Source: an uncultured Chloroflexia bacterium
GTDB taxonomy: Bacteria; Chloroflexota; Limnocylindria; Limnocylindrales; CSP1-4
NCBI GenBank assembly: GCA_963819655.1
Contig: CAWFXA010000002.1
Coordinates: 960,001-1,024,000, forward strand
Length of the DNA stretch: 64,000 nucleotides
Reading direction: 5' to 3'
Shown here: piece by piece, positions 23,826 through 26,164 of the stretch
Layout of the letters: every line of letters begins with the position of its first letter
How positions within the stretch are numbered: position 1 is the first letter of the stretch
Position numbers and translations under genes: made by a program
The notes under the pieces: generated by a model
Told to the model about the DNA's origin: nothing
Databases searched by the model: none
The model's input: only the letters and a program-made list of their open reading frames with translations

Positions 23826-24266
23826 CTACAGAGACCCCACCCCGATGACCGGGATCTCGAAGTCCACCAGTCGGATCCCAGTGGACGGGTCCCACGCCGT
23901 CGCGATCAACGTTCCCCTCTGGACCCATCCGGCGAAGAATGCCGTCGGCGAGAAGCGCACCACTGCATAGCAACTCTCCCCGGCCGCGAGAGTCGCGCCT
24001 GGAGTGAGGGCTGGGCAGGTCGAGCCTGGCATGAGGCCGAAGCCGAAGTCGTCGGGCAGGCCTCCGCTCACCAGCAGAAGCACGTCCGCGCCACTCGTGT
24101 TGGTGATCTTGGTTCGCTTGTAGTTCTCGGTTCCGACCTGCCGTTTGTGGAAATCGATCGTCGATGGACGGGCGGTCAGGACGCCCGGTTGTGCCGCGGA
24201 AACCGCCCCGACCGCGGCGCTCAGGATCAGGCTCCCGGCCATGAGAATGGCAACCATCCGGCTCAT
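23826..24266 (-). CDS. Secreted Ig-like (choice-of-anchor-D-like) hypothetical protein
   Basis: Signal peptide ending AVSA; PSTIDF, ITNT and STC...L.AGESC...VRFSP pattern. Confidence 0.65.
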   Translation of the reverse strand: MSRMVAILMAGSLILSAAVGAVSAAQPGVLTARPSTIDFHKRQVGTENYKRTKITNTSGADVLLLVSGGLPDDFGFGLMPGSTCPALTPGATLAAGESCYAVVRFSPTAFFAGWVQRGTLIATAWDPSTGIRLVDFEIPVIGVGSL

Positions 24267-24433
24267 CGCGACGGCTCCCTCGAGGGGTGACGGGATCAGG
24301 TGTTGGACGGCCCTCTTCGATGGATTGTCCGATCCTCCGCACGGCGAGTCCAGTACTTTCGTCCCATCCCGGTGCCTCCGGACACCAGGCACGTAGTCGT
24401 CCGGAAGCCCTGGTTCCCGGGTAGACTCCGAGC

Positions 24434-25729
24434 GTGCCAGCGCCGGGCGAGACCGTGGTCGTTGTCGTCGCGATCGGGCTCGCCATCCTGTTATCTGTCC
24501 TGTTGTCCGTGCGCGTCCTGACCGCCGTCCCTGGCTGGGTCCGTCGGGCCCGCACGCCCGAGACGCGCGCGCTCCGCGTCATCGGTGTCGGTGGCGGCGG
24601 CAGCAACGCGGTCGATCGGATGGTCCAGGCGCGGATCCAGGCGGTCAGTTTCGTGAGCTGCAATACGGATGCCCAGGCTCTGCGTCGCTCGAGCGCGAAG
24701 ACGAAGCTCCGGATCGGTGACTCGATCACGGGCGGCCTCGGTTCTGGCGGAGACCCGGAGATCGGGCGTCGGGCTGCCGAGGAGGACCACGATAGGATCG
24801 CTCGCGCCGTTCACGGCGCAGACCTTGTCTTCGTCACCGCCGGTCTTGGCGGTGGAACGGGATCCGGCGCCGCGCCGATCGTCGCTGCCAGCGCCAGGGA
24901 TCAAGGCGCCCTGACGATCGCGGTCGTGACCAAGCCATTCGGTTTCGAGGGATCGCAACGGAAGCGCGTCGCCGACACCGCGGCGGCCGAGCTTGCCGCG
25001 AATGTCGACGTCCTGATCGTCGTGCCGAACGATCGTGTCGGCGACGTTCTCGCCGAGGACGCCACCATGGTCGATGCGTTCCGAGTCGTCGACGACGTCC
25101 TGCTGCAGACTGTCCAGGGGATCATCGACCTGATCGCCGCGCAGGGGTTGATCAATCTCGACTTCGCCGATATCCGGTCCGTGATGAAGGACGCCGGTCC
25201 TGCGGTCATCGGCCTGGGTCGTGGCAGCGGCGAGCACCGTGCGATCGACGCGGCTCGTCAGGCGATCGCCAGCCCGCTTCTCGAAGCGAACATCGATGGC
25301 GCTCGCGGGATCCTGTTCAATATCTCCGGCCCGGCCGACCTCGGATTGCGCGAGGTCCGGCTGGCGGCCGACGAGATCCGCGGGCGCGCCGATGCCGACG
25401 CGAACGTCATCTTCGGGACGACCTTCAGCGAATTGCTCGGCGAGGACGTTCTCATCACCCTGATCGCGACTGGGCTGAACGGGCAGGATCGGACCCAGAA
25501 GCCGGCGGTGGAGGCTTCCTCGAACGGTGGCCATCCTCCGGTAGCCGGGGAGGTGCGGCCGCCGAGGCGTTCGGCGCGGACGGTCAAGGAGGCGTCCCCT
25601 GTGGATGCGCCTGCGTCGCCGGTCGAGGCTTCCGATCAGGCACCACAGCCATCGCCGACTCCGGATGACGATGACACCGAGGTGCCGAGTTTCCTGCGCC
25701 GGACGGGGCAACCTCCTGGCGTCACGTGA
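24434..25729 (+). CDS. ftsZ: FtsZ-family GTPase paralogue with predicted N-terminal transmembrane helix
   Basis: GVGGGGSN, NTDAQAL, GGGTGSG tubulin signature, PFGFEG, T7 loop NLDFADI and C-terminal EVPSFLRR; N-terminal VVVVVAIGLAILLSVLLSV; TAGACT-N6-GTG start. Confidence 0.9.
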   Translation: MPAPGETVVVVVAIGLAILLSVLLSVRVLTAVPGWVRRARTPETRALRVIGVGGGGSNAVDRMVQARIQAVSFVSCNTDAQALRRSSAKTKLRIGDSITGGLGSGGDPEIGRRAAEEDHDRIARAVHGADLVFVTAGLGGGTGSGAAPIVAASARDQGALTIAVVTKPFGFEGSQRKRVADTAAAELAANVDVLIVVPNDRVGDVLAEDATMVDAFRVVDDVLLQTVQGIIDLIAAQGLINLDFADIRSVMKDAGPAVIGLGRGSGEHRAIDAARQAIASPLLEANIDGARGILFNISGPADLGLREVRLAADEIRGRADADANVIFGTTFSELLGEDVLITLIATGLNGQDRTQKPAVEASSNGGHPPVAGEVRPPRRSARTVKEASPVDAPASPVEASDQAPQPSPTPDDDDTEVPSFLRRTGQPPGVT

Positions 25730-25882
25730 GTCCCGGCCCGGTACGCGAACAGACGGCGTCGGCCAATCGTGGATCGGCGGTCGGTTCGTCGGTCGTGGGC
25801 ATTTGACCTGGCGCGGACAATTGAGGTCACCGCGGTCCCGCGCCGCATGACCCCGATCTCGTGGCGCGCCAAGGAGAGCCTG

Positions 25883-26164
25883 ATGCAGGCACCGAGCCCG
25901 TTCCCGGCCAGCGTCCTACGGCCTCCGTCCCCCTCGGCGCGCTGCACCTGCAAACATTGGGTCTATTGCGATTGCACGTGTCACGGCCGGTACTGCGATC
26001 CGTCCGAGAACATGTGCGACCTCGCCTTCCTGCCCGACGACGGCGGCCTCGCCTATTGGGGCTGCGCGGGTTGCACACCCGGTGAGGGGGCGCTGCACTA
26101 TCTCGGATGCGAGCTGATCGGCTGGAACGTGCCACTCGGAGGCACCCCGGAAACCCCGCAGTAA
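25883..26164 (+). CDS. Small Cys-rich hypothetical protein (10 Cys in 93 aa)
   Basis: AAGGAG RBS; CTCKH..YCDCTCH..YC and GCAGC....G.LH..GC. Confidence 0.65.
   Translation: MQAPSPFPASVLRPPSPSARCTCKHWVYCDCTCHGRYCDPSENMCDLAFLPDDGGLAYWGCAGCTPGEGALHYLGCELIGWNVPLGGTPETPQ

Follow-up and report, generated by a model that had tools for sequence, protein, structure and literature searches.

The window analyzed here is a stretch of 64,000 nt from the genome of an uncultured Chloroflexia bacterium (GTDB lineage Chloroflexota; Limnocylindria; Limnocylindrales; CSP1-4; assembly GCA_963819655.1, contig CAWFXA010000002.1, positions 960,001 to 1,024,000 of the forward strand), and the gene in question is a paralogue of the cell division gene ftsZ whose product carries a predicted N-terminal membrane anchor. 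The open reading frame (ORF) of this type A anchor-bearing FtsZ paralogue occupies positions 24434-25729 of the plus strand (stop codon included), begins with GTG, and encodes a protein of 431 aa that scores 371.3 bits against TIGR00065, the NCBIfam ftsZ equivalog model, above the cut-off of 295.2. Pfam detects two domains and no others: the Tubulin/FtsZ GTPase domain (PF00091, residues 48-205, positions 24575-25048, 150.7 bits, E 7e-44) and the FtsZ C-terminal (activation) domain (PF12327, FtsZ_C, residues 255-348, positions 25196-25477, 98 bits, E 4e-28), the latter modeled with a predicted local distance difference test score (pLDDT) of ~90. The G-box GVGGGG (residues 51-56), the FtsZ/tubulin signature GGGTGSG (residues 139-145, positions 24848-24868) and the T7 (synergy) loop NLDFADI (residues 241-247, positions 25154-25174) are all present. 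In an alignment of 97 anchor-bearing FtsZs, the G-box, G139-G145 of the signature, N241, D243, F244, A245 and D246 of the T7 loop, and indeed all nucleotide-binding and T7 residues are invariant. A disordered linker rich in Pro, Ala and acidic residues follows (residues 351-410, positions 25484-25663, pLDDT 32-40, no secondary structure) and leads to the C-terminal conserved peptide DDDDTEVPSFLRR (residues 411-423, positions 25664-25702), which is of the FtsA/ZipA/SepF-docking type; P418, F420 and R422 of this peptide are conserved in at least 90% of the 97 rows, and a motif of this type is found in 115 of the 120 closest homologues. The initial annotation had read the gene as a complete FtsZ with these motifs, linker and peptide, and the equivalog model, Pfam and the motif alignment agree with it. 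Only 20 diagnostic positions out of ~318 in the core, most of them conservative changes, separate the 97 anchor-bearing proteins from 34 canonical Limnocylindria FtsZs. Since the GTP pocket, the T7 loop and both domains are intact, GTP-dependent polymerization and GTPase activity are to be expected of the protein.

What sets the protein apart is an N-terminal extension of 47 residues, composed of an acidic six-residue tail, the hydrophobic run TVVVVVAIGLAILLSVLLSVRVLTAVPGW and the basic stretch VRRARTPETRAL. The tail (residues 1-6, positions 24434-24451) has a net charge of -1; the predicted single-pass transmembrane helix (residues 7-35, positions 24452-24538) contains the near-invariant R27 and P33 and has W35 as its last residue; and the basic juxtamembrane linker (residues 36-47, positions 24539-24574) contains the near-invariant R40, P42, E43 and R45. 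The initial annotation had described about 20 uninterrupted hydrophobic residues followed by basic ones: the hydrophobic segment and the basic residues behind it are there, but the run extends over ~29 residues and is interrupted by a single embedded Arg (R27). The best 19-residue Kyte-Doolittle mean of the N-terminal segment is 3.11 in the window copy, whereas the region ahead of the G-box does not exceed 1.18 in any of 11 canonical FtsZ copies from Limnocylindria. Among the best 120 matches from a collection of 5.8 billion proteins (64-91% identity), 117 keep a hydrophobic N-terminus (hydropathy of at least 2.3), the conservation on which the initial annotation had made its reading depend, and the N-termini of the remaining three start inside or past the segment. 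Seven residues of the extension (L24, R27, P33, R40, P42, E43 and R45) are conserved in at least 90% of the 97 anchor-bearing FtsZs. The window copy shows the arrangement that marks the clade in alignments A1 and A2, namely a hydrophobic helix with an embedded Arg, then Pro, then R-x-P-E-x-R right before the first strand (S1), and it matches the N-terminal profile with 61 bits (E 4e-16). It has one private feature, two tandem LLSV units at positions 24488-24511 with the internal GTG 24509 (V26) inside them. One unit is an in-frame insertion of four residues that lengthens the membrane helix; of the 27 aligned N-termini, the other 26 are gapped over these four columns, and a second LLSV unit was not found in the closest database matches (~90% identity).

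The charge distribution around the helix is uniform among the homologues: in 115 of them the net charge ahead of the helix has a median of -1 (range -1 to 0) and that past the helix a median of +4 (range +3 to +7). With a charge of -1 before the helix and +4 after it, the positive-inside rule predicts an N-out/C-in orientation, so that the tail would be extracytoplasmic and the GTPase would stay in the cytoplasm. An AlphaFold2 model built on the 97-row alignment places a helix at residues 4-39 (pLDDT 72-88 across residues 1-30), a low-confidence hinge at residues 35-42 (pLDDT <50), a confident FtsZ core at residues 47-346 and a disordered linker at residues 351-419 (pLDDT <50), with a spacing of only ~12 residues between helix and S1. 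Solved FtsZ structures match the protein with E-values down to 6e-103 from residue 46 onward, and residues 1-42 were unmatched by any of the 49 solved FtsZ sequences that aligned (alignments begin at residues 43-48). By sequence and model, then, the extension is probably a single-pass N-out/C-in membrane anchor, and we hold it very likely that a working FtsZ here bears a real N-terminal anchor.

The extension depends on the start codon chosen. The -10-like hexamer TAGACT at positions 24422-24427 of the plus strand lies 6 nt ahead of GTG 24434, the geometry of a leaderless promoter; the initial annotation had this spacing right and let the gene begin at 24422, but that coordinate belongs to the promoter-like box and not to the ORF. 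Hexamer, spacer and GTG are kept in all 15 related loci whose 5' end is intact (14 genomes), the spacer being 6 nt in 13 loci and 7 nt in two, and the hexamer reading TAGACT in 11, TACACT in three and TAGATT in one. Across the genome, sites with TANNNT ahead of an ATG or GTG are by far the most frequent at spacers of 6 nt (329) and 7 nt (274), compared with counts of 84-132 at spacers 3-5 and 10-12, and 74% of the sites with spacer 6 and 68% of those with spacer 7 open ORFs of at least 100 codons, compared with 26-36% at spacers 3-5 and 11-12. This enrichment of TANNNT-N6/7-RTG bears out the earlier remark that the leaderless geometry is common in the genome, and suggests that several hundred of its genes are leaderless. 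Within the window the exact form TAGACT-N6-RTG occurs once against an expectation of 0.16, a count reached by 14 of 100 shuffles and not significant alone; the argument for the start is therefore carried by the comparative and genome-wide counts. GC content at third codon positions (GC3) is 0.80 over the whole gene and 0.87 within the extension, and rough ratios of nonsynonymous to synonymous substitution rates, taken from related pairs, are below 0.8 for the extension in 32 of 34 (non-independent) pairs and 0-0.27 for the core. Taken with the conserved residues, these values indicate that the extension is coding and under purifying selection, and with the extension conserved and the box kept in every one of the 15 loci, the long start at GTG 24434, which the initial annotation had already preferred to GTG 24509, is on comparative grounds the true start. 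Assembled contigs of four RNA libraries, which show neither transcript ends, strand nor level and may include DNA carry-over, cover the gene with pieces from relatives, one of them with 97% identity to positions 24488-24714; most RNA-contig depth over the gene comes from FtsZ of other organisms at the conserved G-box, and stretches without such contigs carry no meaning.

The window's own genome (G000; 3.49 Mb in three contigs of equal GC, 91% complete, 0.5% contamination) contains three FtsZ genes: a canonical copy in the division and cell wall (dcw) cluster, the type A gene of the window, and a second anchor-bearing paralogue, type B. The canonical ftsZ lies on contig C3 at ~896.7-898.0 kb and is part of a dcw cluster that also contains ftsA, a DUF1290 gene, ftsQ, ddl and murG; its product has no hydrophobic N-terminus, ends in DDLEIPSFLRRK, and is 56% identical to the type A protein. 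The window gene is thus not the sole ftsZ of the genome, in line with its reading as a paralogue in the initial annotation; it is an accessory copy, the canonical ftsZ holding the dcw position. The type B gene (C3:251870-253123, minus strand, L005:8871-10124) encodes a protein 61% identical to type A and lies between clpX and valS, which are on the opposite strand, a position kept in five of eight type B loci. Among the genomes searched, only the window's genome has two anchored copies. The word "orphan", used at first for the type A gene, is at best partly right in the presence of a canonical ftsZ, a second anchored paralogue, more than 100 close homologues and a diversified clade; the claim that the gene has no adjacent ftsA, sepF or dcw genes was borne out, since Pfam found no division genes among its six neighboring ORFs, which encode an extracytoplasmic function (ECF) sigma factor, a YCII protein, a SulP permease and three proteins without a Pfam match. 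FtsA is present in the genome, and SepF, MinC and ZapA were not found in it at 91% completeness. SepF was found in none of 141 genomes of the window's family, with or without the paralogue, and the idea that the anchored FtsZ substitutes for a missing SepF was dropped.

Beyond this genome, anchored FtsZs form a clade. In a maximum likelihood tree of 70 FtsZ cores (N-terminal segment excluded; found by a rapid search, and with long branches for some of the divergent forms), 29 of 30 anchor-bearing rows fall on one side of a branch with a Shimodaira-Hasegawa-like approximate likelihood ratio (SH-aLRT) support of 97. The window copy lies inside this 29-row clade and, within it, in a 21-row group of types A and B (SH-aLRT 99); the clade adjoins the canonical Limnocylindria FtsZs (SH-aLRT 96), and both belong to a 44-row group (SH-aLRT 96). 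When all 30 anchor rows were constrained together the likelihood improved by 5.6 (p-AU of 0.61 in the approximately unbiased test). The grouping of 29 rows and this p-AU are consistent with a single origin, and the data fit a duplication of the lineage's own FtsZ followed by a split into type A, type B and divergent forms. Among the latter, three further anchored subtypes from the same family, L134 (G146), L135 (G311) and L136 (G307), have N-termini VDALAQ, VEVFLN and VEVLAQ and an unchanged promoter-box geometry.

The distribution was surveyed in samples of genomes by means of a profile that spans the N-terminal 52 positions (cut-off E ≤1e-4), some unpublished genomes being counted in the denominators only. 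Profile matches occur in 18 of 138 genomes of the window's family f1 (own genome included) and in 12 of 28 of its genus; families f2 (0/16), f3 (0/92) and f5 (0/2) gave none. Two of 153 genomes in family f4 gave weak and partial matches (E ~3e-5, from position 19 or 24 to 52), which cover only the part beside the G-box and were not counted as members. In a phylum sample of 401 genomes, a match from position 1 was seen only in the own genome and one congener; of the partial matches outside the class, starting at profile positions 23-28, six were inspected and set aside as ordinary N-terminal extensions, all six lacking a hydrophobic segment (Kyte-Doolittle ≤0.4). A scan of species-representative contigs gave one anchored-type locus (L006) in 80 among the matches listed. 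In the class-wide search, a canonical-type FtsZ match was present in 13 of 13 anchor-positive genomes among the matches listed. A close homologue is labeled "Candidatus Limnocylindrales bacterium", and related loci are labeled Chloroflexota, Chloroflexia or Limnocylindrales.

A few observations on the surroundings of these genes are recorded here. The ORF upstream of the type A gene (23826-24392, minus strand) has no Pfam match and a signal-peptide-like N-terminus; the downstream ORF (25769-26164, plus strand), of putative coding status, is Cys-rich and also without a Pfam match. Neither is kept beside type A homologues. In the dcw cluster (L004, C3:888000-907900) the DUF1290 gene sits between ftsQ and ftsA, and 3' of the canonical ftsZ there is an ORF fusing a YggS-type pyridoxal phosphate (PLP) domain with DUF167/YggU; sepF was not found there. 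Three additional matches to the FtsA Pfam domain outside dcw (C3:406989-407372, C2:540122-540595 and C2:883309-883782) exceed the cut-off with 46-49 bits; these could represent actin-fold paralogues, PilM-like or of another kind.

We propose, as the reading we somewhat favor, that the type A gene encodes a genuine, expressed accessory FtsZ paralogue of a soil Limnocylindria (Chloroflexota) bacterium, in which the N-terminal 47 residues serve as the anchor and which works with the canonical FtsZ and FtsA; an accessory FtsZ with its own N-terminal anchor had been suggested in the initial annotation, and sequence, comparison and structure model lend that suggestion support, while the part in membrane remodeling or in an alternative division mode that was also raised there would be a more conjectural step. 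An mRNA starting at or beside GTG 24434 would be translated without a leader, the short acidic tail would be translocated, helix 7-35 would cross the membrane, and the Arg-rich stretch would hold the FtsZ domain in the cytoplasm some 12 residues off the bilayer. There the orthodox core should polymerize with GTP directly at the inner membrane face, and would assemble with or beside the canonical FtsZ at the division site. It would thus supply an integral tether, or a nucleator, that is part of FtsZ itself, FtsA being the sole tether found in the lineage. Because the linker and the FtsA-type peptide are kept and a canonical FtsZ is its constant companion, assembly with or beside that FtsZ seems the most likely mode, and joining or nucleating the normal Z ring the simplest reading; we see about even chances that the protein belongs to the usual divisome and does not serve some process apart from it, and the docking peptide and orthodox core argue for the normal divisome at least as much as for a separate system.

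Several points weigh against this proposal. An anchor that is attached so tightly, and at the N-terminal face, sits awkwardly with simple co-assembly into a constricting ring, because artificial FtsZ bends membranes in opposite directions when tethered N- or C-terminally: in the passages of PMC9111741 that concern attachment, the end by which FtsZ is attached (citing Osawa et al. 2008, 2009) sets concave versus convex deformation in vitro. Membrane insertion and topology are predicted from hydropathy, charge and the model, and a near-invariant Arg within the hydrophobic run is odd for a plain anchor and may do more than anchoring. An RNA-library contig of a relative (214 nt, 14 differences) on positions 24306-24517 spans the site where transcription is proposed to begin; it may stem from DNA carry-over or from the transcript of the divergently oriented neighboring gene. 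More divergent members of the clade, including two of L134-L136, lack the docking peptide. The type A gene has no conserved neighborhood in flanks of 1.5-6 kb, so that its context offers no functional hint, and its patchy occurrence in family and genus (18/138 and 12/28 genomes) implies that the anchored FtsZ is dispensable for division in close relatives.

The same features can be read in other ways. The anchored FtsZ could form a separate membrane-remodeling filament outside the Z ring, turned with the opposite face to the membrane and favoring the opposite curvature, which would make outward bulges or wrap inward tubules in budding, in the formation of vesicles or tubules, or in shape control. 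The N-terminal anchor with its ~12 linker residues speaks for such a filament, as does the effect of the attachment end on deformation in vitro, as far as the relevant passages of PMC9111741 describe it; so do the variety of types that have arisen in the clade (a genome may have as many as two, and some types lack the docking peptide), the solitary position of the gene, outside dcw and with a conserved promoter to itself, and its patchiness among close relatives, and the near-invariant helix Arg together with the conserved R-x-P-E-x-R motif keeps the idea open. It sits less well with a core that departs from canonical FtsZ at just those 20 diagnostic positions, with the FtsA-type docking peptide kept by types A and B (115/120), which points to shared partners, and with the lack of conserved dedicated partner genes next to types A and B; internal membranes or budding are not known from the lineage. 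On balance we regard a separate filament as unlikely, though well worth keeping in mind. Given the tight N-terminal leash and the attachment-end effect in those passages of PMC9111741, the curvature preference could reverse, and by this analogy the clade might represent an "inside-out" FtsZ that occurs in nature, and with it a second machine that shapes membranes by means of FtsZ, working beside, and possibly against, the constricting Z ring. This is a speculative and rather doubtful extension. If it were true, bulges or buds would be pushed out or stabilized, or inward tubules wrapped and pinched from the cytoplasmic side, and the helix Arg and the R-x-P-E-x-R motif would be parts of the mechanism, in lipid or partner contact, beyond anchoring.

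A low-abundance anchored subunit could also act as a membrane-bound regulator that nucleates, positions or sequesters canonical FtsZ filaments, for instance conditionally, and does not itself add force or scaffold. An accessory gene dispensable in relatives, with its own promoter, a GC3 of 0.80 slightly below the 0.83-0.93 of neighboring genes, and a type B relative adjoining clpX in five of eight loci would suit such a role; but that clpX is on the opposite strand, and since both polymerization faces and the catalytic T7 loop are intact the protein is not a capper, so that we think a regulator improbable. The anchor itself might be illusory, the product being an ordinary soluble second FtsZ translated from GTG 24509 or later. 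That in-frame GTG and the three of 120 database entries called short are in its favor; against it, the amino acids encoded ahead of 24509 are conserved even in homologues of 64% identity and include near-invariant residues, the extension has coding GC3 and is under purifying selection, all 15 loci examined have the promoter box at a constant spacing from the first GTG, and GTG 24509 (codon 26) lies inside the insertion that is missing from the other 26 of 27 aligned copies. The comparison thus largely refutes an over-extended ORF, which we consider very improbable. The hydrophobic N-terminus could, by its position and hydrophobicity, be a cleavable export signal, or it could be a hydrophobic element that does not enter the membrane. 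It has no positive n-region, the tail being acidic and the positive charges following the helix; its run of 25-29 residues is far beyond a signal-peptide core; its hydropathy of 3.1 fits a membrane span and not an amphipathic helix; and a GTP-dependent FtsZ outside the cell is implausible. We give this explanation hardly any credence.

The interest of such a protein is that direct tethering of FtsZ has so far been known mainly from engineered constructs, on which the arguments about bending forces are based. A natural, conserved FtsZ with intact catalytic motifs and an integral N-terminal anchor would provide a test case for whether the tether position sets the direction of bending, for whether FtsZ can act as an integral membrane protein, and for how the ring is stabilized in lineages with one known tether. 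Since the clade is small, comprises several subtypes and is constantly accompanied by canonical FtsZ, paired biochemical comparison within one organism should be straightforward. The annotation also needs correcting: the homologues carry the plain database name "cell division protein FtsZ".

Bacterial FtsZ is regarded as a soluble protein that is brought to the membrane by the adaptors FtsA, ZipA and SepF. With canonical FtsZ, represented by the genome's own dcw copy and by PDB entries 4m8i_A and 2vam_A, the anchored protein shares the two-domain fold, the G-box, the T7 loop, the linker and the docking peptide. It differs in its conserved 47-residue extension with a predicted transmembrane helix, and in being encoded outside dcw by an accessory, patchily distributed gene with its own leaderless promoter; the dcw position beside ftsA and ftsQ and the soluble form without a membrane span, both of which characterize a housekeeping FtsZ, are absent from the window copy. 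ZipA of Escherichia coli is a bitopic FtsZ tether with an N-terminal transmembrane helix in the N-out orientation, and the anchored FtsZ resembles it in predicted topology and in the presumed role of fixing FtsZ filaments to the inner membrane by an integral anchor. ZipA, however, is a protein in its own right, with a long linker and a domain that binds the C-terminal peptide of FtsZ, whereas here the anchor is fused to the N-terminus of FtsZ itself with a linker of ~12 residues, and Pfam found no ZipA domain in the 431-aa protein. Osawa, Anderson and Erickson in 2009, and Osawa and Erickson in 2011 ("Inside-out Z rings"), reportedly used engineered FtsZ in which a membrane-targeting sequence had been moved to the N-terminus. 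Those constructs are like the window protein in attaching to the bilayer directly by the N-terminal end without an adaptor, but they are man-made proteins attached by an amphipathic helix and missing the natural C-terminal tail, while the window FtsZ is natural, has a predicted transmembrane helix as its integral anchor, and retains both linker and docking peptide at the C-terminal end.

Full-text literature searches brought up no published account of any naturally occurring bacterial FtsZ that has a transmembrane helix at its N-terminus, although supplementary files outside that coverage might hold more, and the passages on FtsZ and on Limnocylindria in the Chloroflexota genome survey PMC10608941 give no anchored FtsZ. 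The FtsZl1 and FtsZl2 families of Makarova and Koonin (2010) are diverged FtsZ-like GTPases in conserved operons with vWA or other partners; the window protein, in contrast, scores as a true FtsZ equivalog, and no vWA domain or other partner was found beside the type A gene among the six neighboring ORFs. The nearest printed precedent found, according to the relevant passage of the same paper (PMC2875224), is one FtsZ-like protein from a crenarchaeon, highly diverged and disrupted in its C-terminal part. As there described, it likewise belongs to the FtsZ-tubulin superfamily and has transmembrane helices fused to its N-terminus, but it is a single diverged sequence and not a bona fide bacterial FtsZ, whereas the clade of the window protein is conserved and has its catalytic motifs intact.

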